DNA from: Bacteroidota bacterium
GTDB taxonomy: Bacteria > Bacteroidota > Bacteroidia > Bacteroidales > VadinHA17
Direction of reading: 5' to 3'
NCBI GenBank assembly: GCA_012729475.1
Contig: JAAYDB010000068.1
Coordinates: forward strand, 23,697 to 87,696
Length of the DNA: 64,000 bases
Part shown: piece by piece, positions 4,070 through 38,509 of the stretch
Layout: the number at the start of each line of letters is the position of its first letter
Numbering within the stretch: position 1 is the first letter of the stretch
The notes under the pieces: generated by a model
The model's database searches: none
What the model was told of the DNA's origin: nothing
What the model saw: only the letters and a program-made list of their open reading frames with translations
Translations under genes and position numbers: made by a program

Positions 4070-5422
4070 ATGAAAGGTAGTGCTGATGATCTGCGGAATG
4101 AAAAGCTGGGTAAGTTACTCCTGAGTTATTCTTTGCCTGCTATCATTGCTACTTCAGCAGCATCATTGTACAATATCACCGACAGGATCTTCATTGGTCA
4201 GGGTGTAGGTCCTCTCGCCATATCGGGTTTGGCTTTAACCTTTCCCCTGATGAATATTACAGCGGCTTTTGGTGCAATGGTTGGTGTTGGTGCCAGTGCT
4301 ATGGTATCTATACGTCTGGGACAACACGACAGGAGAGGGGCAACACAAATTCTCGGTAATGCAGTTATGTTGAATATCATTCTGGGGATCTCCGTAGGTC
4401 TGATTGCTTTGATTTTTCTTGAACCGCTCTTGTATGCCCTCGGAGCAAGTATAGATACATTTCCCTATGCCAGGGAGTATATGCAGGTTGTTCTGGCCGG
4501 CACTGTTTTTACTCATCTTTATCTTGGGATGAATAATATTATGAGGGCATCAGGCTATCCCTCAAAGGCTATGGTTACTACCCTCATTACTGTTGGCGTC
4601 AATCTTATTCTGGATCCGTTTTTTATTTTCTTTCTGGGCTGGGGTATACGTGGTGCAGCCATTGCAACGGTGTTGTCACAGATTGCAGGAACTATCACTG
4701 TAGTAGTACATTTTGTTAAAGGAAAGAGTTTTGTTCACTTTCTGCCAGGTTACATGAAGCTTAAGAAATTGATAATAGGTGATATTATTTCAATTGGAAT
4801 GTCTAATTTCCTTATGCTTATAGCCGGTAGTATAGTTATAACATTAATAAATATCAGTCTTGGCAGATATGGAGGTGATCTGGCTGTAGGTGCTTTCGGT
4901 ATAGTGTACAGTATAACCAATCTTGCTGCAATGGTAGTAGTGGGACTTAACCAGGGGATGCAGCCCATAGTTGGTTATAATTATGGGGCACTGAAAACCG
5001 AACGTGTGCTTAAGGCTTTCAAAATGACAGTGTTTGCTGCCACTGCTGTAACAAGCTTTATGTTTCTGTTTGCTGAGATCTTTCCCGGAATGATAGCAAG
5101 GGCTTTTACAAAAAGTCCCGATCTCATTGGTCTGACAGTACGGGGCATGCGATTAAACCTCATGGTGTTTCCCATTGTAGGATTTCAAATGGTTACATCC
5201 AGTTTCTTCCAGTCTATAGGTAAAGCCAGATTCTCAATATTCCTTTCTCTTACACGGCAGGTCCTCTTCCTGATCCCTGCCCTTCTTATTCTTCCGCGTT
5301 TCATAGGGCTTGATGGTGTCTGGCTGGGGGGACCTGTATCAGATTTTTCATCTTCCCTGCTAACACTTTTTGTTCTTAAATGGCAGATAGGGATACTTAA
5401 AAAAAGACAATTCCCTATATAA
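4070..5422 (+). CDS. MATE family efflux transporter
   Basis: 450 aa, about 12 hydrophobic segments. N-terminal LLLSYSLPAIIATSAASLYNITDRIFIGQGVG and internal GMQPIVGYNYGA motifs are typical of MATE/NorM-like transporters. Confidence 0.9.
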   Translation: MKGSADDLRNEKLGKLLLSYSLPAIIATSAASLYNITDRIFIGQGVGPLAISGLALTFPLMNITAAFGAMVGVGASAMVSIRLGQHDRRGATQILGNAVMLNIILGISVGLIALIFLEPLLYALGASIDTFPYAREYMQVVLAGTVFTHLYLGMNNIMRASGYPSKAMVTTLITVGVNLILDPFFIFFLGWGIRGAAIATVLSQIAGTITVVVHFVKGKSFVHFLPGYMKLKKLIIGDIISIGMSNFLMLIAGSIVITLINISLGRYGGDLAVGAFGIVYSITNLAAMVVVGLNQGMQPIVGYNYGALKTERVLKAFKMTVFAATAVTSFMFLFAEIFPGMIARAFTKSPDLIGLTVRGMRLNLMVFPIVGFQMVTSSFFQSIGKARFSIFLSLTRQVLFLIPALLILPRFIGLDGVWLGGPVSDFSSSLLTLFVLKWQIGILKKRQFPI

Positions 5423-6128
5423 ATTTTTCCCTCCTCTGAAGATTGAATAAGGCAGCTAAAAGGAATAAAACTGAAGCTGTGATAAGAATTATGCGGTTCT
5501 TCAAAGTGATAATTGCCCATGTAGCCTCACTGACCCCATAAGCTGTATTGAATGGATTATGAAACAGGTTCCACTGGCTTTTTAACAAAGGGTCATCAAG
5601 GATCATAAAAAAGAATCCAAAAATAATCATTACCACTGCTGTCCCGTTGCCGTTTCTGATAAGGGTTGAAAACATAAATGACATCATCCCTATAAACAGA
5701 ACTGGTATCATTACATGAACAGTTACAGGGATAATAGGAAAGCGTACAATCAGGACAGAAGAGATAAAAGTGAAGATCAGCATAATAACAAAAGCAATAA
5801 GAAATATCAGAATTATTCTTACCAGCCAAACCTTATATCTGTAATCGGGGATACCGAAAAGTATCTCTATGGTGCGTGCATCCTGATCATTCTGGATTCC
5901 AAAGGTTGAAGGATAAAAGACGAGAAGGATGCCCGAAAAAAGAAATACGCCATAGAGGTCGGACATTTCTGATATGTCGTTCGTGAAAACATATAAGACA
6001 GACAAACCAAGGTAAAAAAATATTGATCCGGCAAGAAACCACATGAATTTATTCGCAAATATGATCCTCAGATTATAGAAGATCATCATCCGGATAAGAA
6101 TAAAAAGGTTAGAGATTTTTTTGATCAT
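5415..6128 (-). CDS. ABC-2-type transporter permease (6 predicted TM), last gene of the hybrid efflux operon
   Basis: 237-aa hydrophobic protein with about 6 helices. It starts 10 nt after the stop of the RND-ABC fusion gene. No ATPase gene of its own, so I infer it pairs with the fused NBD. Confidence 0.6.
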   Translation of the reverse strand: MIKKISNLFILIRMMIFYNLRIIFANKFMWFLAGSIFFYLGLSVLYVFTNDISEMSDLYGVFLFSGILLVFYPSTFGIQNDQDARTIEILFGIPDYRYKVWLVRIILIFLIAFVIMLIFTFISSVLIVRFPIIPVTVHVMIPVLFIGMMSFMFSTLIRNGNGTAVVMIIFGFFFMILDDPLLKSQWNLFHNPFNTAYGVSEATWAIITLKNRIILITASVLFLLAALFNLQRREKFI

Positions 6129-6138
6129 GTTTTTATTA

Positions 6139-9100
6139 TTATGTTCTTCTCAATAGCCAGAGATATGCATCTTCCAGGTTAGGTGTTGCCGCAACAGCTT
6201 CTTCCCATGGCCTGAATTCAGAAATAACACGCACCCTTATTTTTTCTCCTTCCAACATATGGTGTACTACAAGATTTTCCTTAACAAATTTCCCAAAGTC
6301 TTTTTCCGGAATATAAAATTGCCATACATGTCCTTCCGCTTCTTTGATCATATCAACAGGCTTGCCGGTATATCGGAGTTTGCCTTTGTCCATGACTGCA
6401 ATTTTATTACAGGAGCTTGATATGTCTTCAATAATATGGGTTGAAAAAATCACTACCCGCTCACGACTCAGTTCTGCCAGCAGGTTTCGGAATCTGATTC
6501 TTTCTCTTGGATCCAGGCCGGCAGTAGGTTCATCAACAACAAGTATCCTGGGAAGATGCAGAAGGATAAGAGCTATTCCTATTCTCTGTTTCATCCCTCC
6601 TGAATATGAGCCTATCTTTTCATGCCTGCGTTCTTCCATATGAACTGATCTGAGGACATAATTAACCCTTTCTTCACGGGCTTTCAGATCAGTTATATTC
6701 TTTAACATAGCCTGATAATGCAGATATTCATGGGCTGTCATGTTTTCATAACTTCCGAATTCCTGAGGGAGATAGCCAATCAGTCCCTGCAGTTCTTCCC
6801 GCTTTTCCTGAGTATCCAGTCCGTTGATCCATACTTTCCCGTAACTCTGTTCCAGTATGCCGCATATAATTCTCATAAGAGTGGTTTTACCTGCCCCGTT
6901 AGGACCCAGCAAACCAAACATTCCGTTACCAATGTTAAGAGAAATACAGTTAAGTGCCTTGAAAGGTGTTTTCTTTTTGCCGATAATAGGGACAGAAGCA
7001 ACTGCCTTATAGAAAGTTTTTCGCAAACTTTTAAACCTGCCCTGAAGGCGGTTTATATCTGTTTTGTCTCTCGTCAGTCTGTTCCCTGTTTTATATATTA
7101 TAAGGGAGGAATACCATAATAATCCTATAAACAGAACAGTAGCGATATTATTCCATTTTAAGTAGAAAAATATAAGATTACACATTGGGATGATCCAGAT
7201 AACAACAAAACCGGAAATTCTTATGACTGTTTTAATCAGACGGTTTTTCTCTTCTGAATATTTATTTGCAAGAACTTTCCTGACGGAGTTCCATTGTCCT
7301 GACAGAAAGAGCCAGGTAACAATACTGAAAGAAAATATCCAGAAACCTTTCTTAAGATAGAGGTAGGTAAAATATATTATGAAAACAAAAACCGGCAGTT
7401 GCCATAATAAATTTGACAGATCTTTCCAGTCAGTGTATTTGTTATTGTATCCGAGGCGTTCTCTTATCCTGGCACCGGCTTTCCATTCTCTTTGCCATCT
7501 GTTTTCCCTGTCATATATTTTTACCAGACTCTGAATATGGATACTGATTTTTTCATTTTTGGGAATAACAGTTTCTCTGGCTTTTCTCAGACTGTTGAGT
7601 ACAAACCATGTTCCTGATGGAACAACTATCAGGGCAAGGATCGTTGTGATGAGCTGCCATAGAAATTTATCTATTAATCTGTATATAATGAATAATAGCA
7701 ATATAAGTATGATTCCCTGGATGATTTTGTTTTTCCAGGATAGAGATTTAATCCACTCCAGTGAATTTTCAAGACCTGAATAAAATGTTGGAATAAATAC
7801 CAGGGTCAGAAGTGAGCTCATTGCAAGACCTCCTATGACTGTGATGGCGAAAGTAGCACCGACTACCGATACATATTCAGTTTTACCCATTGCAAGAGGA
7901 ATAAGGGCAATGACAGTGGTTGCGGCCGTGATTAGTATCGGCCTTAGCCTTGCCATCCCGGCTATCATGAGTGCCCTTGAACGTCTGTAGCCCCTGTTTC
8001 TTAAAACCCTGGTATAATCGATAAGAATAATACCATTATTAACAACAATACCGAGTAAAATAAGAAAGCCGATCAGGGTGTTCAGGTTAAGCAGGGAATT
8101 ATCTGTCAGAATAAGTGAAATTATTGAACCGAGACCAGCCAGAGGGATACTTAATAGAAGTACGAAAGGAATCCACAATGATTCGAAAACTGCAGCAAGA
8201 ACCATAAAGATAAGGATAAAGGCAATTTTAAGAGGAGAGTAAAAATCCCTGAGGGCATCTTCTTCATGTATCACTTCGACTGCAAGGCTTGTTGAATGAT
8301 TAAGAGCCGCTACAACATTTTCGATTTCTTCTCTTGCGTTTTCAAGCAGCTCTTTCGAATCGTTTATTTCATCTTTAAAAGCATAGGTGACAGTGATCTG
8401 CTTTTCCTGGTTTTCGCGATGAATATTGCCCATTCCATAAGAATAGATTATATCTGCCAGGTCGTCCATGGAGGCTATTGAACCTTCAGAAGAAGATACT
8501 TCAAGGTTTATCAGATCATCTATTGTCTTGTCATTATCATCACTCCTGCCTTCATCATCTTCATATTTGAGTATTATTGAATAGCTGTCGGTTCCGTCAC
8601 TGAATGTAGCTCCTGATGTATATTCACGTCCGAATGTTAAGAGGGCTGCAGAGATATCATTGAGGGAGAAGCCTGAACGGTTTATGTAATCCATATCGAA
8701 ATTAAGATGAACTTCCGGGCTTGCAGACTGGATATTAAGACTGACATTATTTATTGACTGCAGATTATCCAGGGAGGCTTCAATATCTTCTGCCAGTCTG
8801 CGCATATTTTCAAAATCCTGACCTTTAATTATTATCTTTTCATTTTGTGAGCCAAGACCAAGAAGGTTCATGATATTACCTCCCATCTGTTCTTCGGAAT
8901 TTTCTTCTGTGGACATAAAACCTCCACTGGCCGATAGTTCATCAAGATTTACCTCAGCCCCGGTTATATTTTTTGTTTTCTCACTTATATCATTTTTTAT
9001 GCCGGCAAGCTCACGTTTACTGTTTTTATTCCAGTCTTTTGCCAGGTTTATTATGACAGTGGCCCTGTCTTCTTCAATCCTGGAAATAATATCTTTTTGT

Positions 9101-10863
9101 TCAGGTATTTCAGCAAGCCGGTTTTCTATTTGGGTAACAACAGCATCTGTTCCTGAAAGGGTTGATCCGGCTGGCATTGTTACAGAGAGTCTGAAGCTGG
9201 GAGTATCAATCTCACGGGGATTATTCAGGCTTAGGGTAAGGCTTATAAGAAGGGCAGAAAAAAACAATACGAGAGTCCCTATTATAGTAACTGCAGGATG
9301 TCTCATGCTGGCCTTTAGCACAAGACTGTATGCCTGTATCAGTCTGTTGTGAACAGAGAGCTTCTGATAGATTTGCGACTTGCCGTTTTTGCTCTTGGAA
9401 AGGAGGAAATAGGTAGCCATAGGGATGAGGAGCAGAGCTGTAAGAAGGGATATTAACAGAGTAGAAATAATTGATACACTGATATTTCTTATGACCAGTT
9501 TTATGGCAAAGTTTGAAGAAAAAACAAAAGGGAGAAAAATGATGAGTGTAGTTAGTGTTGCAGCAAATATTGATCTCCGTACTTCGGTACTCCCCTGTTT
9601 TACCGCCGTTTCATTGCTAAAACCATCCCCGGCCAGACGGTAAACATTTTCAAGTACCACCACAGAATTGTCAACAAGCATACCTATTGCAAGAGCCATT
9701 CCTACAAGGGTCAGACTGTTGATTGTTATACCTGCAGCATAGAAGAAATTGAACGCAGTATATACAGATACAGGAATTGAGATGGCAATGATTGATACCA
9801 GTCTTAAGTTTCTCAGGAAAAACCAAAGGATCAGTACAGCCAGTAATCCTCCTGCCAGAGCAAGATTAATAATCTCACTGATGTTTTTCTCCATTAATTC
9901 TGCACTGTTGTTCTGAACAACGATCATGACATCCATAGACTTCATTTGGCCGTTCAGTATATCTATTTGTTCAAGAGTTCTGTGGGACAGATCAATCAGA
10001 TTAGCCTGGTTGTCATTTACCAGAGTCATTGTAACGGCATCCATTCCGTTGACACGACTATAAGACTCTTCCTGTCTGACACCAAAAACAATTTGGGCTA
10101 TATCGCGAAGTAGAACAGGGCCCTCCTGCTTAACTGTGATATTCCCGATATCACCTACATCAGTATATTCAGAGCTTATGTTAACAAATAATTCTCTGTC
10201 GATACCTGAAATTTTACCTGCAAAGATTTTTTCCCTGCTATTGTCATTCAGGAGGCCTGCAACCTGATTCATGCTTATTCCGTAAGCTTTACATGCTTTG
10301 CGATCAAGTCTTACCTCTATCGAGTTTTCCTGTCCTCCATATACTTCAACATCAGCTATCCCGTCAATATTCTGCAGTTCAGGACGTATTTCGCGATCCA
10401 CAATATTACGTATCCTGTTAACACCGCCTTCACCCCGTACCTGCAGTTCCATAAACTGATTTGTCAGTTGTCTTATATCAATTTTAACTACATTGATTTG
10501 AAAATTATCAGGTATTGTTGTTTTTACAAGAGCAATTTTCTCCTGCAGTTTCAGGTAGGCATATTTGAGATTTGCTTTTTGATTATAATAAACAGTGATT
10601 ATTCCGTATCTTGATGTAATTGTGGTCTCCAGTTTTTCTATGCCTTCCAGTGTGCCTACCGCACCTTCAACCGGAATAACTGCCTGTTTCTCCATATAGT
10701 CCGGGTCCGTCTCGGTCATGGGAAGTATCTGTACAAAAAGTGCAGGGAACTCTGTATTGGGAAGCAGTTCCACAGGCAGCCTTTTGTATGATACATACCC
10801 CAGCATAGTAAGCCCTGCAAAAAGCATCACGATAAGAATTCTTCTTTTCAGGATAAAGTCCAT
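6139..10863 (-). CDS. RND efflux permease (AcrB-like) fused through extra TM helices to a C-terminal ABC-transporter ATP-binding domain
   Basis: Continuous ORF. The N-terminal roughly 1060 aa are typical RND: [35 protein letters not shown]..., TM4 [16 protein letters not shown], TM10 [14 protein letters not shown]. The C-terminal part has Walker A [12 protein letters not shown] (about 6883..6906), signature YSGGMKQR, Walker B LVVDEPT and H-loop STHI. I prefer ATG 10863 (MDFILKRR) over the track's GTG 10956, which overlaps the upstream gene by 74 nt. Confidence 0.85.
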   Translation of the reverse strand: [1574 protein letters not shown]

Positions 10864-10882
10864 AGTCTTATTTTCCGTGGAG

Positions 10883-13800
10883 TTAACAGTTGAGATTTGT
10901 TTCTTTTCTTTTCCCGGTAATCCAGGCACTGAAACTGTCAAGGAGCCAGTAGACACATGGTATAACCATTAAAGTGAGCAATGTTGATGATAACAAACCT
11001 CCTATAACTGCAAGAGCCATGGGAGATCGTAGTGATGCGCTCTCACCTATACCCAGAGTCAGGGGAAAAAGAGCAAGGATCGTTGTAAGGCTTGTCATGA
11101 TAATAGGTCTGATCCTCTGGGCTCCGGCTGTTACAATAGCTTCTTTACGGCCCATACCGTTATCTCTTAGCTGATTTATCCGGTCAATGAGTATTATGGC
11201 ATTATTCACCGCAATACCACCCAACATTATAATGCCGATGTAAGCCATCATATTGAGGGTCTTATTGAGAAGGAAAAAGGTCAGGATTGTTCCGACACCA
11301 GCCAGAGGTATGGTAAGCATGATAATGAACGGTTGAATGATGGATTCAAACTGTGCCGAAAGGACCATAAAGACCAGTATAAGAGAAAGCATCAGTGCAA
11401 AAGAAAGATTGGACATCGATTCTTTTCTCTTTAGTTCTTCTCCGGTAAATTCCATTTTGTAATCTGCCGGAAGAGATATTCCGCTGACCGCTGTTCGTGC
11501 CTGCCTTATAACTTTATCGAGAGGAAAATCGTCATTTATATCTGCATACAGATAACTGGTTCTGTTCTGATTTCTTCGTGTTATCTCTCTTGGAGAAAGG
11601 ATAATATTTATTTCTGCAAGTTCGCTCAGAGGCACTTTTACATTTCCGGCTGTTATCATCAGATCTTTTAACTGATTAAGAGATATATCCTGCAGTTTTA
11701 TACTAATGTCCTTCATTTCTCCATCTTCCTCGAAGCTTCCTGCAATGGGACCTTCCAGGTAGTTTTTTACCTGGCTGGTTATATTTTCAGCTGTCACATT
11801 ATAATAGCTGGCTTTAAAGCGGTCGATTGCAATCTCAATTTCAGGAAGGCCTTCATCCATAGATGAACTAAAGTTGAAAAGTCCGGGAGAATCGTTAAGC
11901 AGGGAGTCAGCTTCACGTATTATTTTCCCGAGGACAGAGTAATCATTTCCGGCTACCTCAAGGATAAAAGGCGATTCAGTAATTCCCAGAGAAGCCTGTA
12001 ATGCGCTTTCTTCACGGGAAAAACTAACATCAATACCTGGGATTATCCCAAGCTGGCCATCAATAAGGCTAATGATTTTTTCAGATTCAGAAGCGAAATC
12101 TTCCTTAAGTATTACTTTAAGAGAAGCGAAATTTTCTCCTCCGGTTTTTTCATCACTGGCAAAAGAGGACTTTTCGCTTTCTCCTGTCTGGGAATAGATG
12201 GTTTCCAGTGTTTCTCCTGCCATTTCTCTGATGATGTTTTCAACTCTTGTTGCAGTGCTGTAAGTCCGTTCCAGGCTGGTCCCCTGAGGCAGGGTCAGGT
12301 TGACTGTGAATTCAGCAGATTCGGTTTTTGGCATGAACTCACTTCCGAGTGACGGTATTATCAGTGCACATCCTGCAAGCAGTATTAGTGATAGTATTAC
12401 AACCAGACCTCTTTTTTTTATGACTTTCTCAAGGTAATTTTTATACCCCTTGAAATGGACAGAAGAGGAGATACCAATTTTTTTGTTTCTGTCGGAGAAA
12501 ATGGTTGATACCAGCATGGGGATAACAAGCATTGCTACAAAAAAGGAGGAAATAAGTGCAAAGGCAACTGTCCAGGCCTGGTCTTTGAACATTTCTCCTG
12601 ATGGACCCTGCAGGTAAACGATTGGAAGAAATACCACAATGGTTGTTAATGTCGAGGCAGCAATAGCTCCTCCCACCTGGCCGGTCCCGTTTATAACTGC
12701 CTCTCTTAGAGGCATCCCTTCCTCTCTTAGTCTGGTAATGTTTTCCAGTACAACAATAGCATTGTCAACCAACATCCCAGCTCCCAGGGCAAGACCCCCT
12801 AATGTCATTATGTTAAGGGTGAGATTGCTGAAATACATCAGGTTGAATGTGGCAATTATAGAAACAGGGATCGCGATACTTATTACAAGAGTTGTTCCTG
12901 CTCTTCTCAGAAAAATATACAGTACAATTATTGCCAGAATTATACCTGTGATAAGTGTATTTTTAACCTCATTAATAGCATTATGTATATATTTTCCCTG
13001 ATCCTGTATTATGATAAAGTCATATCCGGGCAAAGCTTTTTCAAGATTTTCCAGTTCTTCGATCAGGCTGCCGACTGCATCTACAGTGTTGTATTCCGGC
13101 TCTTTAAATACTGATAATCCGATACATCTTTCGCCGTTGATGGTTACTATATTGTCGGGCTCCTTATTACCCTTTCTGATAATTGCCACGTCTTTAAGGT
13201 AAACAGGGACCCTTGCAGATGCTGATGGAACAGAAGATTCCGCAGACGAAGGAGAAAATTGTGAGGCAGAGGGAACAGGGGCCGCAGATGAAGCAGATGA
13301 CGATGGCTGAATAAAGCCTACAATGATATTTTCAAGATCGTGTATATCGCTAAGCGCTGTTATACCCTTCACGGTATACCGGATACCCATATCCACTATT
13401 GATCCTCCCGAGACATTCCTGTTATATGCACTTATCCGGGTCGCGATGACGTCAGATGTGAGCCCGAATGATTCAAGAAGATAATTATTTGTTTCCACTA
13501 CAATCTCTTCTTCTTCATCTCCGGTAATTGTAATATCGGCTATCCCTTCCAGCCTGACCAGCTCATTACGTATATAATTGACGGCTACCTTACGTAATTC
13601 ATCCATATTACTTATTTTGCTGTTCCTTAATCCTATTATCATTACCGGAGAAGCATTGGGATCGTTTTGCGAGATAGTGAAATCTTCCATATCTGAATTC
13701 TGGGCAAAAGAATTGAGCTCTTTCTGAAGATCGAGAAAAGCTTCATCCATATCCTTTTTCCAGGTATATTCAACAGTAATCAGAGCAGAGCCTGTTCCGG

Positions 13801-14053
13801 AGACGGAAGATACCTGGATCACGTCACTTTGTCGCATGCAAAGGGCTTCAATGAGATCGACATAATTCTTTTCTATTTCCTCAGGAGGTTTTTCTCCGGC
13901 TGACAATTCAATATATATCCGGGGATTGTTAAGATCAGGGAAGAGGTCTGTTCCCAGCCTGCCAAAAGAGATGAATCCCAGAAGACCTATACCCAGAACC
14001 AGCATGAGTACGGTAACCGGGTATTTTACTGCAAATTGAGCAATTTTATTCAT
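10883..14053 (-). CDS. RND efflux permease (AcrB-like), paralogue A
   Basis: 1056 aa. MNKIAQFAVKYPVTVLMLVLGIGLLGFISFGRLGTDLFPDL, TM4 GAGMLVDNAIVVLENI, TM10 GGIAVNNAIILIDR. Twelve-TM plus two periplasmic-loop layout. Starts 5 nt after the adaptor gene. Confidence 0.9.
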   Translation of the reverse strand: MNKIAQFAVKYPVTVLMLVLGIGLLGFISFGRLGTDLFPDLNNPRIYIELSAGEKPPEEIEKNYVDLIEALCMRQSDVIQVSSVSGTGSALITVEYTWKKDMDEAFLDLQKELNSFAQNSDMEDFTISQNDPNASPVMIIGLRNSKISNMDELRKVAVNYIRNELVRLEGIADITITGDEEEEIVVETNNYLLESFGLTSDVIATRISAYNRNVSGGSIVDMGIRYTVKGITALSDIHDLENIIVGFIQPSSSASSAAPVPSASQFSPSSAESSVPSASARVPVYLKDVAIIRKGNKEPDNIVTINGERCIGLSVFKEPEYNTVDAVGSLIEELENLEKALPGYDFIIIQDQGKYIHNAINEVKNTLITGIILAIIVLYIFLRRAGTTLVISIAIPVSIIATFNLMYFSNLTLNIMTLGGLALGAGMLVDNAIVVLENITRLREEGMPLREAVINGTGQVGGAIAASTLTTIVVFLPIVYLQGPSGEMFKDQAWTVAFALISSFFVAMLVIPMLVSTIFSDRNKKIGISSSVHFKGYKNYLEKVIKKRGLVVILSLILLAGCALIIPSLGSEFMPKTESAEFTVNLTLPQGTSLERTYSTATRVENIIREMAGETLETIYSQTGESEKSSFASDEKTGGENFASLKVILKEDFASESEKIISLIDGQLGIIPGIDVSFSREESALQASLGITESPFILEVAGNDYSVLGKIIREADSLLNDSPGLFNFSSSMDEGLPEIEIAIDRFKASYYNVTAENITSQVKNYLEGPIAGSFEEDGEMKDISIKLQDISLNQLKDLMITAGNVKVPLSELAEINIILSPREITRRNQNRTSYLYADINDDFPLDKVIRQARTAVSGISLPADYKMEFTGEELKRKESMSNLSFALMLSLILVFMVLSAQFESIIQPFIIMLTIPLAGVGTILTFFLLNKTLNMMAYIGIIMLGGIAVNNAIILIDRINQLRDNGMGRKEAIVTAGAQRIRPIIMTSLTTILALFPLTLGIGESASLRSPMALAVIGGLLSSTLLTLMVIPCVYWLLDSFSAWITGKRKETNLNC

Positions 14054-14058
14054 GCCTG

Positions 14059-15111
14059 CTACATTACTATTTTCACTTTTGACTTGTTGCTGAGTGTCTC
14101 AAATCCACTGATGACAATACGATCGTTGATAGTCAGGCCCCTTGTGACCTCTATCTCAGTAAGATTCTCAAGCCCCGTTTCCAGAATCCTTTCTTCAGCC
14201 AGCCCTCTGTCAACAATGAAAACAGTTTTGCCTCTTTGCCGCGACAGGATAATATCTTTAGGTATAACTATTACAGAATCTTTCCGGTTAGTGACAATAT
14301 CAGCCTTGACGAACATGCCAGGCCTCAGAAGATAAGAAGAGTTATTAATCTGTATGTTGCCTTTGAATGTTCTTGAATCCGGATCAATTGCAGGTGAGAG
14401 TTGTGCAATCAGGCCTCTGACAGTATCTTCGGGAATGGTATAATTTGTCAGACGTACAGTCTGTCCGGGCCTTACAGATGAGATGTATTTTTCAGGAAGC
14501 TGCACTTCCATATACATCGTCCGATAGTCCATGATTTTTGCTATGGCTGATCCTGTTTCAACCTGTATTCCCTGTGTATAATAAGAAAGATCGACAATGA
14601 CTCCATCGATGGGAGCTACTATCATGGTTTTATCCATTTGCAGCTTTGCATTCTCAACATTCGTCTTTGCATTTTCATATTCTATACTTGCAGCCTTAAG
14701 TTCCTTGAGGGTTACTCCACCTTTTTCATACAGAGATTCCTGTTTCCTTAGCTCACTTTCGGCAAGCTCAAGATTTAACTGATTGGTTTCAAGCTTAACC
14801 GAAAGCTCAAATTCCCTGTCTTCCAGTCTGGCTATTATTGCTCCTGCATTAACTCTGTCACCCATCTGCCAGAGCTTACCCGTTTGAGGGTTTTTTTGAA
14901 GATAATAAGATGCAGCTATTTTGGATTTAAGCTCTGTTTCACCTTTTGGATAGACAGTGCCTGTGGTATTTATAAATTCCTCAATAGAACCCGGGCGTAT
15001 TTCCTGAACAGAGACTGGTATTTCAATGTCAGGAGAAAGGTTTTGATCCTGGTTTCTGCATCCTGTAAGTACAGTAAGCGTAGCTGCAATCAGTATAATT
15101 ATTCTTTTCAT
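14059..15111 (-). CDS. Efflux RND periplasmic adaptor (membrane fusion protein), lipoprotein
   Basis: 350 aa. Lipobox LTGC in MKRIIILIAATLTVLTGCRNQ, a coiled-coil hairpin region (ELSVKLETNQLNLELAESELRKQESLYEKGGVTLKELKAASIEYENAKTNVENAKLQ), then beta-barrel-type sequence typical of HlyD/AcrA-family adaptors. Confidence 0.9.
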   Translation of the reverse strand: MKRIIILIAATLTVLTGCRNQDQNLSPDIEIPVSVQEIRPGSIEEFINTTGTVYPKGETELKSKIAASYYLQKNPQTGKLWQMGDRVNAGAIIARLEDREFELSVKLETNQLNLELAESELRKQESLYEKGGVTLKELKAASIEYENAKTNVENAKLQMDKTMIVAPIDGVIVDLSYYTQGIQVETGSAIAKIMDYRTMYMEVQLPEKYISSVRPGQTVRLTNYTIPEDTVRGLIAQLSPAIDPDSRTFKGNIQINNSSYLLRPGMFVKADIVTNRKDSVIVIPKDIILSRQRGKTVFIVDRGLAEERILETGLENLTEIEVTRGLTINDRIVISGFETLSNKSKVKIVM

Positions 15112-15187: not shown

Positions 15188-16669
15188 TTATAAAGTTTTT
15201 ACCGGAGCGACTGGTTGACTCTTCTCAAAATCATAAAGGGTCTGGATCTTAAGATTCAGCAACTCAAGCTTATATGATATCAGGGCATTGGTATAGGCTA
15301 TTTGTTGTTCAGAGAGTTGGTTCTGAAAAATATTGAGGTCCATTCCTGTAAGATCACCGTTCCTGTATTTTTCCAGATTAAGATCGTAAGTCAGTTGTGC
15401 GTTGACGACATTCTGACGCGCTATCTCTATCTGATTTCGAAGATTGATAAGGTTTCTGCAAACCTGTCTGATGCCGAGGATAATGTTGTTCTGCTCCTCT
15501 TCAAAGGATATTTCTGATGCTTCGATTGATGCTTCTGATGCTTTTATCCTTGATTTTCTTTCTCCCCAGTCCCACAAGGGAATAGTGAGTGAAAGAGAGA
15601 CACTTTCATTATCTGTAGGATTATCATATATATTGGCAATGTTTCTGTTGTCACCAAACAACCCGACTGACAAGTTTAGTTGTCCCCTGAATTCATTAAG
15701 GGCTTTGGTTTGTATCAGGTTGAATTCAGCATTTTCTATATTGATCTGTCTCTGTCGCAATTCCATCCTGTTGGCAAGACCTTTATCAATGGCAAAAGCA
15801 ATATCAACATTAACGGTATCAACTGCAATGTTTGTCAAAACAATAAGATCTTCAAAGAGACTCAACCCTATCAGTATTTTGAATTCATCTTTGGCATTCT
15901 CGAAGGAAACCATACTGTTTTCGTAATTTGATTTAGAAGAAGCAAGATTAAGTTCAGCCTGAAATATTTCTTCGCGTGCCGACAGACCTGCGTCAACTTT
16001 GTTTTTTATAATATCATAACTCTTCTGCATATTCTCATAAGCCTGTTTGTCTATTTCCAGACTCTGTTGTTTCTGATAAACATTATAGAAGTAAATTGAG
16101 ACCTGTTGTTCGAGAGACAGCAGCTGAATGGCATAATTGAGTTGTGCATCTTCAAGTGCCAGTTCCAGTTCTTTTAACTGAAGGCGGGTCCTGTTATATG
16201 TAAAGAGGGGTTGTTCCAGATTCAGTGAAAGGCTGTTGCTGAATCCTGTATTGGTGGTATTTGAATACTCGCTGTAAGAATCAACATACCCGAACTTATT
16301 CATCAGAGATATTCTGGCATCAGTAAGGAGTATGGGTTGTGACACTGTAAAGACACCAAAACTTTCTGTCGTTTTGGTAGTATTCCATGCTGAAATAAGG
16401 TCGTTGAACGACCGGTCCTGACTAAAGCTTAAGGGGTTGACCGATAATGAAAACTGTGATTTCAACGATGCATTTTGTGCATTGAGATTTTCCTGATTTC
16501 TTATCAGATTCAGCCTGGTCTTTTTCATCGTGGGACTGTTTGATTCGGCAACAGCCAAAGATTCTTCAAGAGTCAGTCCTTTTTGTGCGGATATATTTAA
16601 AGAGCATGATAATAAAACTATGGCTGTTATAATAATTCCGCAGGGTTTTTTTACTAAGAATAAATTCAT
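15188..16669 (-). CDS. TolC-family outer membrane efflux protein
   Basis: Signal peptide MNLFLVKKPCGIIITAIVLLSCSLNISAQ followed by LTLEESLAVAESNSPTMKK and two repeated halves rich in coiled-coil heptads, as in OMF/TolC proteins. ATG 16669 preferred over the track's GTG 16744. Confidence 0.85.
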   Translation of the reverse strand: MNLFLVKKPCGIIITAIVLLSCSLNISAQKGLTLEESLAVAESNSPTMKKTRLNLIRNQENLNAQNASLKSQFSLSVNPLSFSQDRSFNDLISAWNTTKTTESFGVFTVSQPILLTDARISLMNKFGYVDSYSEYSNTTNTGFSNSLSLNLEQPLFTYNRTRLQLKELELALEDAQLNYAIQLLSLEQQVSIYFYNVYQKQQSLEIDKQAYENMQKSYDIIKNKVDAGLSAREEIFQAELNLASSKSNYENSMVSFENAKDEFKILIGLSLFEDLIVLTNIAVDTVNVDIAFAIDKGLANRMELRQRQINIENAEFNLIQTKALNEFRGQLNLSVGLFGDNRNIANIYDNPTDNESVSLSLTIPLWDWGERKSRIKASEASIEASEISFEEEQNNIILGIRQVCRNLINLRNQIEIARQNVVNAQLTYDLNLEKYRNGDLTGMDLNIFQNQLSEQQIAYTNALISYKLELLNLKIQTLYDFEKSQPVAPVKTL

Positions 16670-16725
16670 TATTATTTTGTTTGATAATATTAAAGATAAT
16701 AGATGACAGTATCTTTTTTGTGCTG

Positions 16726-19700
16726 TTAAAAATCTTTTACCCACCTGACTGCATCAGCAATAACATATTTTCCTTCTGACATGTTTGTAATCACAACTCT
16801 GGCAGTATCGGAAGACAGGTAATATCTTCCCAGGTTATTCCATCCGCCCCGGGCATTCTGATAATCAAATGTAAGTTCTTCAATGCCTTCATTATGGTAT
16901 ATTTTAAGGTGTATGTCTTTTACTGACTGATCAGCCGGACTTACATCTCCACCTGTTGACACGGGACGAGTTGGCCTTCCCTGACTTTCTCCTGCCGGAC
17001 CACCTGTCCTGTCTCTCCTGATGTCCTGTTCAATTGCTTTTCCGACATAAAAATATATATTGTAATAACCCGGTTCTCTGATGACAGCATTCCATGATGC
17101 TTCCTGAGTGTTATTACCTGATCGTGTATATACAGCGGAAAGGATGTATTTCCCATAGTAATCCGGTTGCACAACAGGTTGCCAGTGTTCGGGTGCATAC
17201 CTTTGATTTATTTGTTGATAGGAAAAAGAATTCTCATTGCTGATCCCTAATATTCTTTTCAGAGGGCTGTTATCTGTTTTTTCATTTACGATAAAACCCG
17301 GATCTTCATTATCAACAATAATCTCAAGCGGATTACTGTAATCAGGGATTGATTCAAGCAGTATTTCTCCTTCGAAAGGCTTCGTCCCGGCAGGAGAATT
17401 ATTAATATTATTTATGTTCCAGACAATTAATCCGGGAATATTTTTGGAGACGAGCGTATTGACCATCATCACTCTGGGTTCTGCATCCAGTGTCAGGCCT
17501 ACTTTTCTGGCTTCTCCCGGCCCTAAAACCACTATTTTTGAAATATTTGAAGCATCAGGAATATTGCTCCCGCCATCATTGCTATTATTACTTCCTCCTT
17601 CAGCAGCCATTAATAAAGGAGCTCCGCCACGCAATCCACTTCTGCCGCCCACAGGACCTGTTCTGAATGATACAGTGAACAGTCCCGCTACAGGTTCAGG
17701 ATTTGATGCAGTGAAAGTGACCTGGTATCTCTGCCTGTTGTCGATAATTATCTGTGACACCTGTAAGCTTGTTATATTAAACGCTGCTTGTTCTTTTGCA
17801 TTAAACCACTCATCAAGAAAGGGATAAAACTCAAAACCGAAATTGTTTTTTATATCCTTGTTAAACTGGTCAGCACTTACACTTCTAAACTGATTATTGT
17901 CAATATATTTTTTAAACCATGTATTGAATTCATCAATACCTGCTTTTGCCCTGAGCAGATTGAAAAGGTAATCACCTTTCAGTGTCAGTATCTTTCTGAT
18001 TGTATCACTTGAAGGGTTTTTTGACAGAATTTCATTTAAACTGTAATTACTGAGGACAAGGTTAGCCTTATCATAATCGCTTAATCCAGGTGTCGAACCA
18101 TAATAACCTGTAGTCTGTGACGGTGGAGTCACTTTTTGCAGATGAGACTCAAACACTGCGTTTATTACCGGGTATTTAAATGAGTAAAAATTATTCCTGA
18201 AGAAATAGAAACTGGGGGACAGTCTGTAACGTACAGGTTCATTTATAGCCACTCCGTCGATGTATCTGAAATTTTCTCCGCTGATAAATGAATTTCTGAT
18301 AAAATCGTTAAATAGTCTGACCTGAAGATCTTTATCGGTTATGATCTGATTATTTCTGGCCATTCTTTTTTTCTGCCTGATCATTTGTTTCCGGAAACCG
18401 GCATTTCTCATGGTTACCAGCTTTTCAGGCAAAAGCACCATTGAGGGCTGTAATTCAGCTCTTGTCTGGGTACTCATCCTGGGATATGAATAGAACTGAA
18501 CAGGAACCTCCAGGAAGCTTAGTGTTTTAAAGGGGTAGGTGGTGGAAAAAGTTGCTTCCAGTTCTCTCATGATACCGGAAACAAGATATGACATTGTGTC
18601 CTTCAGTCCGGAGAGATCATTTTTATAATAATCATTACCTTCGAAATAATGGATGATGTAATTTATAGAATCTACTTCCAGGGTGTCGGAACAATAATTC
18701 CCTATAGCGAGGGTAAGTCCGGTGAGAGGCGATTCAGGACTGTAACAGAAACAGTCACCTTCTTTTTTCATCAGCCCCTGTGAAACAGCTCTTAATCCTT
18801 CAGAAGTATTTACCCGCAGGTGAAAACTGGTGAAATCAACCTTTATCCTGGCGGGATTAGACGGATAGTAGTTTAATCCGGGCACAGGATACCAGTGAGT
18901 CTCAGGGGTCAGAAGAACATATCTTTCTGTGAGAAAAGCCTGTCGTTTGTTGACATTCAGAAATTCTATACTGTAAGGATTGTCATTTATACTGCCTGAA
19001 TAGTCGGGATAACAGAATGCTTCATTTATAGTACCCGAATAGGAAATAGTTATTGAATCAGTTTGTCCGTGATATAATGGTTTTTGGGCTTCCACCTCAG
19101 TGATATGATTCACTGTTCTGTATTTCAACTCAGTATTATTACGGACGATACTGTTGATTTTTAGTCCCGGGTTCAGTGAAAAGAAGTACTTATCTATTGA
19201 ATCGTTATTGTTATTGGTCAAGGAAAGTGTGGCAGTGGCCTGTATGGTTTCCCCTGCATGTAACAGATCAATGGAAGCAGAAGTCAGGGAAAGGGTTTCG
19301 GAATGTTCAAATTCCCTGGCGGCTTCAATAACCATTTTCCTGTCATGGAGTGCTGTTTTATAAAGTGAAACAGTATTTAATCCGCAGATGAATGAACCGG
19401 CAAATGTGAAGATCATCAGGGCAATGCTTACCCCGGTATGGATTTTTGACTGAGGAGGCCTGTTGAAAAGGAGAACAGACGCACAGGCAAGAGAAATACC
19501 CAGCAAACCATACATCAGACGCTGATTGATAATAAGTTCCGGATTATCGAATCCGATAACTCCGGATTTAAACACAGGAAGGCCAAAAGCCATGTAATCG
19601 AAAAAAGACCCAAAACGGTAATAGAGCCAGAACAGATTAAGTGCCGCAATACCCAGGAGGATAAGGAAGGTAAGGGCCTGGTTTCTCAGTATCAGCATTA

Positions 19701-20211
19701 ACAAGAAGGAAAGACCGAGGCTGAAGAGTAAAGTAGGTACACATATTATTATCAGGTATGTGACATAAGACAGCAGATCGACTGTCATGCTTTTCGAAAT
19801 GACATTAATGATCAGTGCTATAAGAAGTATTATTATATCCAGGCCGAGAAACAATTTGAGTATACCCCATGTTTTACCTGTCACATATTCAAGGTTTGAC
19901 ATAGGCCGGGTATAAAGGACCTCATTGGTGTCAATCTTTTTGTCTCTTCTGAGGAAATCAGCTGCGAGAAAGATAACAAGAACTGACTGTGCTATATTAA
20001 GCAGATACAAATTCAGCAGAGGAACGGAAGAGGGGATGGCAACAAGCTCCCATGATTCATCTCCTATAGGGGAGAATAGACCCAGATTCAAGAAAGTGAA
20101 GATAAGCAGGGCTCCTATTGAAAAAAGCCTGAAGAAGAGACTTCTTCTGAGAATTGTTGCTTCGTAGCGGGCAATGGTTTTTATATTGTGAAAAAAGGAT
20201 ATATTGTTCAT
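16726..20211 (-). CDS. ABC-2-like permease (about 7 TM) fused to a roughly 880-aa extracytoplasmic domain of unknown function
   Basis: 1161 aa. The first roughly 280 aa contain about 7 hydrophobic helices. The remainder is hydrophilic, with Gly-rich linkers (GPVGGRSGLRGGAPLLMAAEGGSNNSNDGGSN; TGGPAGESQGRPTRPVSTGG) and a C-terminal module ending ...GGWNNLGRYYLSSDTARVVITNMSEGKYVIADAVRWVKDF. The start ATG overlaps the stop of the upstream ATPase gene by 1 nt. Confidence 0.7.
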   Translation of the reverse strand: MNNISFFHNIKTIARYEATILRRSLFFRLFSIGALLIFTFLNLGLFSPIGDESWELVAIPSSVPLLNLYLLNIAQSVLVIFLAADFLRRDKKIDTNEVLYTRPMSNLEYVTGKTWGILKLFLGLDIIILLIALIINVISKSMTVDLLSYVTYLIIICVPTLLFSLGLSFLLMLILRNQALTFLILLGIAALNLFWLYYRFGSFFDYMAFGLPVFKSGVIGFDNPELIINQRLMYGLLGISLACASVLLFNRPPQSKIHTGVSIALMIFTFAGSFICGLNTVSLYKTALHDRKMVIEAAREFEHSETLSLTSASIDLLHAGETIQATATLSLTNNNNDSIDKYFFSLNPGLKINSIVRNNTELKYRTVNHITEVEAQKPLYHGQTDSITISYSGTINEAFCYPDYSGSINDNPYSIEFLNVNKRQAFLTERYVLLTPETHWYPVPGLNYYPSNPARIKVDFTSFHLRVNTSEGLRAVSQGLMKKEGDCFCYSPESPLTGLTLAIGNYCSDTLEVDSINYIIHYFEGNDYYKNDLSGLKDTMSYLVSGIMRELEATFSTTYPFKTLSFLEVPVQFYSYPRMSTQTRAELQPSMVLLPEKLVTMRNAGFRKQMIRQKKRMARNNQIITDKDLQVRLFNDFIRNSFISGENFRYIDGVAINEPVRYRLSPSFYFFRNNFYSFKYPVINAVFESHLQKVTPPSQTTGYYGSTPGLSDYDKANLVLSNYSLNEILSKNPSSDTIRKILTLKGDYLFNLLRAKAGIDEFNTWFKKYIDNNQFRSVSADQFNKDIKNNFGFEFYPFLDEWFNAKEQAAFNITSLQVSQIIIDNRQRYQVTFTASNPEPVAGLFTVSFRTGPVGGRSGLRGGAPLLMAAEGGSNNSNDGGSNIPDASNISKIVVLGPGEARKVGLTLDAEPRVMMVNTLVSKNIPGLIVWNINNINNSPAGTKPFEGEILLESIPDYSNPLEIIVDNEDPGFIVNEKTDNSPLKRILGISNENSFSYQQINQRYAPEHWQPVVQPDYYGKYILSAVYTRSGNNTQEASWNAVIREPGYYNIYFYVGKAIEQDIRRDRTGGPAGESQGRPTRPVSTGGDVSPADQSVKDIHLKIYHNEGIEELTFDYQNARGGWNNLGRYYLSSDTARVVITNMSEGKYVIADAVRWVKDF

Positions 20212-21104
20212 TACTCGCTTAAATGGGTTTGTAACCTGTGTTCCATGTAATAGACATAAGCATGTTCTATGCCGGGAGTGATAGCCAGTGATTCATATAC
20301 CGGTGTCTTATCTGAAACAATCTGCACATCCCACCCATTTTCTGTAGGTATTGTAGATATAATATCGTATTGATCTTTTGCTTTTTCGTATTCCACAGGT
20401 GAAAGGCTAAGGTTAAATACGTGGCCTTCTGCCTTTTTAATCAGGTTTTCCGGGGGTCCTGAGAAAACCAGTTCTCCTTTGTTAAGGAGTGCCATGCTCT
20501 GGCATGTTGACGAGATATCACCCACAATATGTGTTGAAAGGATTATTGTAACATTGTTTTGTGACAACTGTGAAAGAATGTTTCTGAATCTTATTCTCTC
20601 GTCAGGATCTAGGCCGGTAGTGGGTTCGTCAACAACTATTACAGATGGATTGCCAATAAGAGCCTGGGCTATTCCCAGCCGTCTTTTCATACCTCCTGAC
20701 AGTTTATTGGCCTGTCTGTCGCGGACTTCGAATAATCCAACCTGGTCAAGCAGCCTGTCAACTTCCGACATACGCTTTTTCCTGTTCTTCATTCCTGTCA
20801 GAGAACCTGAATAATCAAGGAATTCCCATGTTTTAAGAGAAGAAAAAAACCTGAAATCCTGGGGCAGATAGCCAAGTATACCGCGTAAGAGCTTTCTGTG
20901 GTACTGAATATCTTTTCCATCAATGAGTATTCTGCCTGAAGAGGGTTTCAGAAGGGTTACCATTATCTTCATCAGGGTTGATTTTCCAGCTCCGTTAGGC
21001 CCCAGTAAACCAAACATACCCCTCCCGAACTTGAGATTTATTTCTTTAAGGGCATGATTGCCATTAGGATATACCTTGCTTAGATTTTCTATTTCAATAA
21101 TCAT
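20211..21104 (-). CDS. ABC transporter ATP-binding protein (ABC-2/DrrA-like), first gene of the operon
   Basis: 297 aa. Walker A [12 protein letters not shown], Q-loop GYLPQD, signature LSGGMKRR, Walker B [10 protein letters not shown], H-loop STHI. Confidence 0.92.
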   Translation of the reverse strand: [297 protein letters not shown]

Positions 21105-37744: not shown

Positions 37745-38509
37745 ATGTTGATTATAAGCAATTTAAAGGCTGCTATTAATGAGAAAAATATCCTGAAAGG
37801 GGTGTCTCTTGAAGTAAAAGCCGGTGAAATACATGCTATAATGGGTCCTAATGGATCGGGAAAAAGTACATTGGCAGCTGTTATTGCCGGAAGAGATTTG
37901 GCCAGGATAACGGAGGGGACAGTTACATTTATGGGGAAGAACCTTCTTGAGATGACTCCTGAAGAAAGAGCCCGGCAGGGTTTATTCCTGGGCTTTCAGT
38001 ATCCTATTGAGATACCCGGAGTCAGTATGATGAATTTTATGAAGACAGCTGTCAATGAACAACGTAAATACAAGGGGCTGGACCCCTTATCAGCATCCGA
38101 TTTCCTTAAAATAATGAGGGAGAAGAAAGAACTGGTGGGGATTGACTCGAAACTGACGAACAGGTCTGTTAATGAAGGGTTTTCCGGAGGAGAAAAGAAA
38201 AAGAATGAAATATTTCAAATGGCAATGCTCGAACCGAAACTGGCTATCCTTGATGAAACAGATTCGGGCCTTGATATAGACGCTCTGCGTATTGTTGCTA
38301 ACGGTGTAAATAAACTAAAAACGCCTGATTCTTCCGTAATTGTCATAACGCATTATCAAAGACTCCTCGATTTTATCATTCCGGATGTTGTTCATGTTTT
38401 GTATGACGGCAGAATAGTCCGTACTGCAGGCAAAGAACTTGCACTGGAACTTGAGGATAAGGGTTACGACTGGATCAGAAAGGAAATTGAAACATCCGGA
38501 TTATCATGA
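37745..38509 (+). CDS. sufC: Fe-S cluster assembly ATPase SufC
   Basis: 254 aa. GPNGSGKSTL Walker A, FSGGEKKKNEI signature, AILDETDSGLD Walker B, ITHY H-loop. Confidence 0.93.
   Translation: MLIISNLKAAINEKNILKGVSLEVKAGEIHAIMGPNGSGKSTLAAVIAGRDLARITEGTVTFMGKNLLEMTPEERARQGLFLGFQYPIEIPGVSMMNFMKTAVNEQRKYKGLDPLSASDFLKIMREKKELVGIDSKLTNRSVNEGFSGGEKKKNEIFQMAMLEPKLAILDETDSGLDIDALRIVANGVNKLKTPDSSVIVITHYQRLLDFIIPDVVHVLYDGRIVRTAGKELALELEDKGYDWIRKEIETSGLS

Follow-up and report, generated by a model that had tools for sequence, protein, structure and literature searches.

To our knowledge, the ATPase domain of ATP-binding cassette (ABC) transporters has always been described as a contiguous soluble cassette that contacts the membrane via coupling helices. 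The first strand (S1) of this nucleotide-binding domain (NBD) is the central strand of an antiparallel beta-subdomain, and it ends in the A-loop Tyr that stacks against adenine. Permeases of the resistance-nodulation-division (RND) superfamily are proton-driven in all cases that we know of. An insertion between strands 1 and 2 has been described in NBD1 of CFTR, where residues inside the regulatory insertion (residues 404-435) were aligned with S1 until a structure placed the insertion (PMC2217481). Here, a window of 64,000 nucleotides from a Bacteroidota bacterium (assembly GCA_012729475.1, contig JAAYDB010000068.1) was analyzed, in which a single gene encodes an RND permease followed by an ABC NBD. 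The C-terminal 545 residues of this fusion probably form a membrane-embedded ABC module, where S1 is split from the rest of the NBD by four transmembrane (TM) helices.

The features that bear on this reading are given below by their positions in the window. Residue numbers refer to the listed 1605-aa open reading frame (ORF) of the fusion, from which 31 is subtracted for protein numbering, and AlphaFold2 (AF2) positions refer to a modelled construct in which position n is ORF residue n + 1060.

6139..10863, minus strand: RND-ABC fusion gene, 1574 aa plus stop, with its start ATG at 10863
7768..10863, minus strand: RND (AcrB-type) permease domain with 12 transmembrane helices, protein residues 1-1032
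7576..7737, minus strand: extra hairpin of TM13 and TM14, ORF residues 1074-1127 (family-mean Kyte-Doolittle peaks of 2.4; AF2 helices 14-34 and 38-67)
7510..7548, minus strand: predicted strand S1 (beta-1) of the NBD with the A-loop Tyr, ISIHIQSLVKIYD, ORF residues 1137-1149 (Tyr at ORF 1148, protein 1117)
6967..7509, minus strand: insertion of about 180 aa between S1 and S2, from the Kyte-Doolittle profile and AF2
7297..7410, minus strand: first hairpin of the insert, TM15 LLWQLPVFVFIIYFTYLYL and TM16 GFWIFSFSIVTWLFLSG with a turn of 2-3 residues (Kyte-Doolittle profile; AF2 helices 126-140 and 144-176)
7093..7218, minus strand: second hairpin of the insert, TM17 ISGFVVIWIIPMCNLIFFY and TM18 NIATVLFIGLLWYSSLIIY (Kyte-Doolittle profile; AF2 helices 179-208 and 211-236)
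6997..7062, minus strand: site B, a second S1-like motif TDINRLQGRF (7033..7062, ORF 1299-1308) with an amphipathic helix KSLRKTFYKAVA
6142..6966, minus strand: NBD from S2 onward and C-terminal beta-rich domain (Pfam ABC_tran, motifs, Foldseek)
20211..21104, minus strand: free NBD paralogue of 297 aa, 42% identical to the fused NBD and the reference for an uninterrupted S1-S2

Both halves of the fusion were recognized in one reading frame. The Pfam family ACR_tran (PF00873) matched ORF residues 32-1060 (E-value 1e-159) at positions 2-1018 of the 1021 in its profile, i.e., at full length, and ABC_tran (PF00005) matched residues 1338-1479 (95.6 bits against a cutoff of 25, E-value 5e-27) at positions 4-137 of 137. 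About 280 residues that include six hydrophobic helices separate the two domains. The fused RND part scored below the NCBIfam cutoffs, including those of RND_permease_2 as the best match (459 bits vs 1250), MdtB (264 vs 1584), and AcrB (151 vs 2150). The Walker A motif of the NBD is at 6883..6906, and the Q-loop, the signature YSGGMKQR, the Walker B motif with its catalytic Glu, the D-loop AGLD, and the H-loop STHII are all present. The listed ORF (6139..10956, minus strand) opens at a GTG at 10956 and has 1605 aa. The real start is the ATG at 10863, or M32, as independent assemblies call a protein of 1574 aa and homologues in the loci L003, L004, and L006 begin at the same Met. Opened at the GTG, the listed ORF shares 74 nt with the end of the upstream RND gene, and the ATG leaves a gap of 19 nt.

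It is extremely improbable that the fusion or its insert is an artefact of a frameshift, mis-assembly, or read-through, or that the NBD is the remnant of a decaying domain and lacks a functional first strand. A gene of the identical length of 1574 aa, in the same neighbourhood, was found in at least 24 independent contigs (ENA, Logan, JGI), and intact fusion genes of 1567-1589 aa were found in two metagenome-assembled genomes of Bacteroidales (L003 and L004) and in the cultured Labilibacter sediminis CG51. Fifteen full-length representatives of 1550-1587 aa cover the linker in its entirety, and the catalytic motifs of the fused NBD are invariant in 89 homologues, which argues against a remnant. 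The notion of an artefact draws on the many database homologues of less than 950 aa, some of which lie on long contigs where the RND genes are in pieces. However, these fragments come from contig ends or from error-rich loci in which neighbouring genes are split as well, and the splitting of the neighbours indicates assembly errors. On the ENA contigs L001 (212 kb) and L002 (613 kb), the fusion and the RND genes are fragmented into numerous short ORFs. The fragmentation looks like the product of a frameshift-rich long-read assembly, which would explain the short homologues on long contigs.

A HMMER search with the linker alone against 1.84 billion representatives identified a family of 104 clusters, or about 100 clusters at 50% identity, where complete members have 1550-1587 aa and carry the linker at about residues 1025-1310. 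The family is widespread among environmental Bacteroidales and Marinilabiliales, and some of its distant members are of high GC content and fall outside the Bacteroidota. Stand-alone forms of the module were sought among these linker-only hits, where two candidates, P0143 (526 aa) and P0218 (501 aa), may be truncated. In every hit with sequence N-terminal to the module, that sequence was a truncated RND domain, and the family is essentially always RND-fused. In a scan of genomes, the module was present in only three of 80 loci, and the rest encoded ordinary NBDs that were reused for a profile of free NBDs. One 2.7-kb ENA contig encodes a protein (P0074) whose first 143 aa share 46% identity with the N-terminal 139 aa of a 237-aa membrane protein that is encoded next to the fusion in the window. 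This part runs straight into TM13 of a module with two TM helices, S1, four TM helices, and the NBD, with no RND domain. It represents either a real rearranged architecture or a chimeric assembly.

The family-averaged Kyte-Doolittle hydropathy showed six conserved peaks across the linker. Four of the hydrophobic segments, at 7354..7410, 7297..7347, 7162..7218, and 7093..7149 (ORF residues 1183-1288), belong to the insert, which consists, in order, of charged amphipathic helices, the TM15-TM16 hairpin, a basic cytoplasmic loop, the TM17-TM18 hairpin, and a basic juxtamembrane segment. The A-loop Tyr and the 'AL' of strand 2 are 5 residues apart in the free paralogue but 185 residues apart in the fusion, and therefore the insertion comprises about 180 aa. 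An earlier note, made from the sequence of this window, had described an ABC ATPase domain split by four membrane helices over roughly this length. The strand, the four helices, the segment after the insert, and the free paralogue that it quoted were all found where it had placed them, and its estimate of the length agrees with the spacing. Its count of four helices is correct for the insert, although two more TM helices precede S1 (7576..7737) and went unmentioned. Likewise, the separation of beta-1 from the rest of the domain was borne out, whereas the insertion lies between S1 and S2 and not directly before the Walker A motif.

The C-terminus of AcrB-type RND permeases is cytoplasmic. Because the helices before and after S1 are even in number, S1 and the NBD are both expected in the cytoplasm, as the earlier note had argued from the even helix number. 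The distribution of basic residues obeys the positive-inside rule and agrees with this predicted topology: the mean count of Lys and Arg was 12.8, 5.4, and 12.0 in the predicted cytoplasmic loops, compared to about one in each of the three short turns. Where the insert turns on the far side of the membrane, its loops have only 2-5 residues. A sequence search of the PDB found no relatives of the linker or the insert.

The motif assigned to S1, ISIHIQSLVKIY, lies in a charged stretch of 55 residues between TM14 and TM15, i.e., between the second and the third of the six linker helices. In a MAFFT alignment, S1 of the free paralogue was placed onto ISIHIQSLVKIY and its S2 onto the S2 of the fusion. 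Nowhere else in the linker are invariant positions as densely clustered as in this motif, where I1139, L1144, V1145, K1146, and Y1148 are unchanged in the 89 homologues (52-75% identical). The pattern [IV]x[IV]xxLxK[IVA][YF] is also retained in representatives that share only 20-41% identity in the linker, and variants in distant members include VQLRTLTKAYG, IAVRELKKVYG, INIRNLVKIFN, and IKISNLTKIYD. In the fusion, the S1 motif with the A-loop is 203 residues before Walker A, in contrast to the approximately 23 residues of a contiguous S1.

Profile comparisons provided a second line of evidence. NCBIfam profiles of complete NBDs began at position 8-17 on the native fused NBD but at position 1-2 on the free paralogue, and a late start was also observed in 23 relatives using the profile built from 62 ordinary free NBDs. 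When the distal segment was spliced directly before S2, the profiles reached position 1-5 and gained 1-14 bits. For example, the GldA profile scored 186.2 bits on the spliced sequence (from position 1), 179.4 on the native sequence (from position 8), and 177.5 without S1 (from position 16), and the PRK13637 profile scored 118.7, 108.4, and 105.1 bits, respectively. The same trend was observed with the ECF, LptB, GlcV, and FtsE profiles. As a control, the splicing was repeated with every upstream 16-mer in a sliding-window test, in which single-domain scores were used because whole-sequence scores were confounded by second mini-domains. The best S1-like window in the protein was KNEKISIHIQSLVKIY, with a gain of +12.6 bits and a rank of 1 among 1314. 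The homologous site was the best window in 22 of the 23 distant relatives, at 181-211 residues upstream of the core and with gains of +12 to +17 bits. The score of S1 in any single protein is not significant by itself, and it is the conservation of the position that carries weight.

Site B, in the basic segment shortly before S2, was the main competitor for the role of the first strand. Were it the true first strand, only a helix of about 20 residues would stand between it and S2, the six helices would be a long membrane linker, and ISIHIQSLVKIY would serve as an extra edge strand or as a docking peptide, or would be a relic. Site B gained +7.6 bits in the protein of the window and was the second-best window in nine of the 23 relatives (up to +13.0 bits). 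Among close relatives, R1303 and G1306 do not vary, and R1307 and F1308 hardly vary. The PhnT2 and PotA profiles also aligned the native and the spliced sequences from the same position, which favours site B. On the other hand, site B scored below the distal site in all 23 relatives, carries a Gly where S1 keeps its conserved Lys, and is unrecognisable in three members with an intact distal motif (P0166, P0218, and P0223), and the alignment of most profiles to the native sequence begins only at position 8-17. In the AF2 model it is a coil or a short helix, rather than a strand, followed by the amphipathic helix. A comparable mis-alignment of an inserted segment with S1 is also documented for CFTR NBD1 (PMC2217481). 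A first strand at site B was hence regarded as unlikely, and the site is read as a decoy or a juxtamembrane element.

The two motifs could also take turns. In such a strand-swap switch, the distal and the proximal S1-like segments would alternate in the same slot and regulate the ATPase, and the choice of the strand that completes the ATP site would depend on the membrane helices or on the state of the RND domain. Two conserved S1-like motifs are present in most members from the Bacteroidota, and both are joined to TM helices by short basic linkers, as a switch of this kind would have it. The proposal is purely conjectural, distant members lack site B, and AF2 gave a single arrangement, which together make a switch very improbable. 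Nor was an internal duplication of a hairpin with an S1-like motif detected: hhalign comparisons among the three hairpin segments returned probabilities of 1-55%, with matches in the transmembrane stretches only. A duplicated unit of hairpin and S1-like motif was rejected as the origin of the two motifs, since matches of this kind are typical of transmembrane composition.

The assignment of the distal segment to S1 was further examined in an AF2 model of ORF residues 1061-1605 (545 aa), predicted from an alignment of 89 sequences with a mean predicted local distance difference test (pLDDT) score of 83.4 and a predicted template modelling (pTM) score of 0.62. The distal segment formed a 10-residue strand, IHIQSLVKIY, at construct positions 79-88 (pLDDT about 83). 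It was followed by two short charged helices and by four long helices at 126-236, then by S2 at 272-282 and S3 at 285-290, both with high confidence, and by a normal NBD. In the DSSP string, every strand other than 79-88 fell in the ATPase region. As DSSP strands require hydrogen-bonded ladders, the distal strand must therefore pair in that region of the model. From the DSSP string, the profile match, and the confidence of S2 and S3, we infer that the distal strand would occupy the canonical central S1 slot.

Several points weigh against this interpretation. The choice of the S1 slot over the C-terminal beta-rich domain or the edge of the sheet is derived from secondary structure, and AF2 may fit any S1-like peptide into a known fold. 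Chance segments of the RND domain scored nearly as well as the distal site in the splicing test, with +11.4 bits for a periplasmic segment of the window protein and up to +14.3 bits in P0166. The second, partly conserved S1-like motif lies only 37 residues before S2. In addition, an RND trimer and an NBD dimer are mismatched in symmetry, and the family is known from sequences alone. These points are set against the outcome of checks that the earlier note had named, none of which refuted its reading. The two NBDs of the window aligned strand to strand; the AlphaFold model returned a strand for the distal segment, helices for the four hydrophobic segments, and a coil and a helix for site B; and other genomes carried the same module. 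The observation of the note is confirmed, and its interpretation, with ISIHIQSLVKIY as the predicted first strand, is supported. The remaining uncertainty concerns the placement of the strand and the function.

In the architecture favoured here, with the distal segment as S1, the chain would leave the last RND helix through one TM hairpin, return to the cytoplasm as S1, pass through two further TM hairpins over about 180 residues, and continue into the NBD from S2. With this order, the NBD would fold from two pieces, and S1 would be tied at both ends to TM helices. S1 and its A-loop Tyr would complete the ATP site. Short basic linkers would join S1 and S2 to TM14, TM15, and TM18, so that the beta-subdomain would be held at the membrane surface and movements of the helices could reach the nucleotide site. 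Specifically, a movement of the insert helices could be felt straight at the ATP site. As the earlier note had proposed, the insert may plausibly pin the ATPase to the membrane or to the RND domain. If S1 is tied to TM helices at both ends, a second, direct mechanical route would exist between the membrane and the ATP site.

The remainder of the fused NBD resembles ATPases of type V exporters. Its best Foldseek matches were TM_1403 (4yer), NosF (7osf), and the NBDs of ABCA proteins (ABCA4/7), and its best profiles were GldA and DrrA. A C-terminal extension like that of the DrrA/GldA/NosF class is also present, although the scores were far below the family cutoffs (175-186 bits vs 402.6 for GldA, TIGR03522, and 168 vs 312 for DrrA). 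A third ABC ATPase of 254 aa, with the Walker A motif GPNGSGKS, is encoded at 37745..38509 on the plus strand and is unrelated to the efflux operon; its neighbouring ORFs suggest that it is of the SufC type.

The fusion is part of an operon whose other members, besides the free NBD paralogue, are as follows.

16726..20211, minus strand: 1161-aa protein with weak ABC-2 membrane hits N-terminally and Golvesin_C at its end
15188..16744, minus strand: outer-membrane factor
14059..15111, minus strand: membrane-fusion protein
10883..14053, minus strand: plain RND paralogue of 1056 aa, 28% identical to the fused RND part and always directly upstream of the fusion
5415..6128, minus strand: 237-aa six-helix membrane protein, starting 10 nt past the stop codon of the fusion

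The order along the minus strand is the free NBD, the 1161-aa protein, the outer-membrane factor, the membrane-fusion protein, the plain RND, the fusion, and the 237-aa protein. In the near-identical loci L084-L086, the block that opens with the membrane-fusion gene and closes with the 237-aa gene is found again, and the trio of RND, fusion, and 237-aa genes recurs in L003, L004, and L006. L001 additionally contains Golvesin_C, outer-membrane factor, and membrane-fusion genes. The position of the 237-aa gene is kept in L001-L004, L006, and L084-L087. A gene for a MatE-family transporter (450 aa, 4070..5422, plus strand) converges on the 237-aa gene, with their ends overlapping by 8 nt, and this convergent arrangement is kept in the near-identical loci L084-L087.

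The 237-aa protein matched nothing in Pfam, NCBIfam, or the PDB sequences, though it has more than 5000 database homologues, and a direct BLAST comparison found no similarity to the N-terminus of the 1161-aa protein. For its AF2 model (pLDDT 79, pTM 0.79), the top approximately 35 Foldseek matches in the PDB were all membrane domains of type V (ABC-2) exporters, including ABCG25, NosY (7qba_D, TM-score 0.66), ABCG5/8, ABCG2, PmtCD, KpsM, and Wzm. The TM-scores were 0.5-0.66 with probabilities of 0.9-1.0. The E-values of this partner fold were weak (0.07-1), which counts against a pairing with the fused NBD despite probabilities of about one and uniform hits. Judging from the modelled fold, the protein may represent an unrecognised family of ABC-2 permeases. 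Most likely, the fused NBD pairs with it as a type V exporter that is covalently tied to a tripartite RND pump. The 1161-aa protein has an N-terminal multi-helix region of about 280 aa with weak ABC2_membrane hits (E-value 4e-3), followed by a large extracytoplasmic region and Golvesin_C. The operon thus probably contains a second ABC-2 system, with the 1161-aa protein as its permease.

Under this pairing, the ABC-2 part would, speculatively, move a substrate across or out of the inner membrane and hand it to the attached RND, from which the adaptor and the outer-membrane channel would lead it out. Equally speculatively, the two NBDs that are needed for ATP hydrolysis could come from a heterotrimer in which two fusions assemble with one plain RND. 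A bolder proposal is a hybrid pump, in which ATP hydrolysis acts directly on the RND permease: the two NBDs of a 2:1 heterotrimer would dimerise and drive or gate the RND cycle. In its favour, the central strand and the A-loop of the NBD would be anchored at either end in helices next to the RND membrane domain, and both RND paralogues lack two proton-carrying residues of AcrB. We consider such a pump improbable; if real, it would be the first RND transporter coupled to ATP, and its NBD would be the first ABC domain to pass force through its own beta-sheet instead of a coupling helix. Asn replaces AcrB D408 (TM4, 'LVDNS') and K940 (TM10, 'VVNNG') in the fusion, the plain RND, and 11 distant members of the fusion family. 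The residues corresponding to D407, R971, and T978 of the AcrB relay are kept in both RND paralogues and in the 11 distant relatives. As predicted from these residues, the D408N/K940N set is a non-canonical proton relay and a trait of the subfamily. The two Asn residues in the RND paralogues would leave room for an action of ATP on the RND cycle itself.

A search of the literature, covering 8 million papers, found no description of an RND-ABC fusion or of a membrane insertion within an NBD. From this search and general knowledge, the split of an NBD by a membrane insertion appears to be undescribed, in line with the earlier note, which knew of no precedent, while both parent families are classical. 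The family would be a natural case in which a soluble domain folds around a segment inserted into the membrane. With an RND permease and an ABC ATPase joined in one chain, the fusion also bears on how inner-membrane exporters cooperate with RND pumps that capture substrates from the periplasm. As the family is present in the cultured Labilibacter sediminis, it is open to experiment.

Among known systems, the nearest class of ATPase is that of the type V exporters NosFY, TM_1403, Wzm/Wzt, ABCA, and ABCG, which have a separate NBD with a C-terminal extension. In contrast to the protein described here, their NBD is one contiguous soluble domain and is not fused to an RND permease. MacAB-TolC shares with this operon the combination of an ABC ATPase, a membrane-fusion protein, and a TolC-like channel. 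However, MacB consists of an N-terminal contiguous NBD and four TM helices, with a large periplasmic domain between TM1 and TM2 and no RND part, whereas the NBD of the fusion is C-terminal and its periplasmic machinery is an AcrB-type permease; the fusion is hence not of the MacB type.

The two-permease RND pumps of the MdtABC type have the same arrangement of outer-membrane factor, adaptor, RND, and RND, where the two permeases of the present operon are 28% identical. Unlike MdtB and MdtC, neither paralogue scores as such against NCBIfam, one carries an ATPase, and D408 and K940 are both Asn. An MdtB2C-like 2:1 heterotrimer, which we assume as a possible assembly, would presumably give exactly two NBDs. 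For a cytoplasmic domain built from separate chain segments, the actuator domain of P-type ATPases offers a parallel, since it consists of two segments split by a TM hairpin and is mechanically coupled to the helices. This is an architectural analogy only, and the fold and the family are unrelated to those of the fused NBD.

The nearest precedent for the site of the insertion remains the regulatory insertion of CFTR NBD1, which interrupts the domain at the same place and set the same trap of a mis-aligned S1. The insertion in CFTR has about 30 residues and is soluble, mobile, and phosphorylated, whereas the one described here has about 180 aa of unrelated sequence and brings four conserved hydrophobic helices into the domain.

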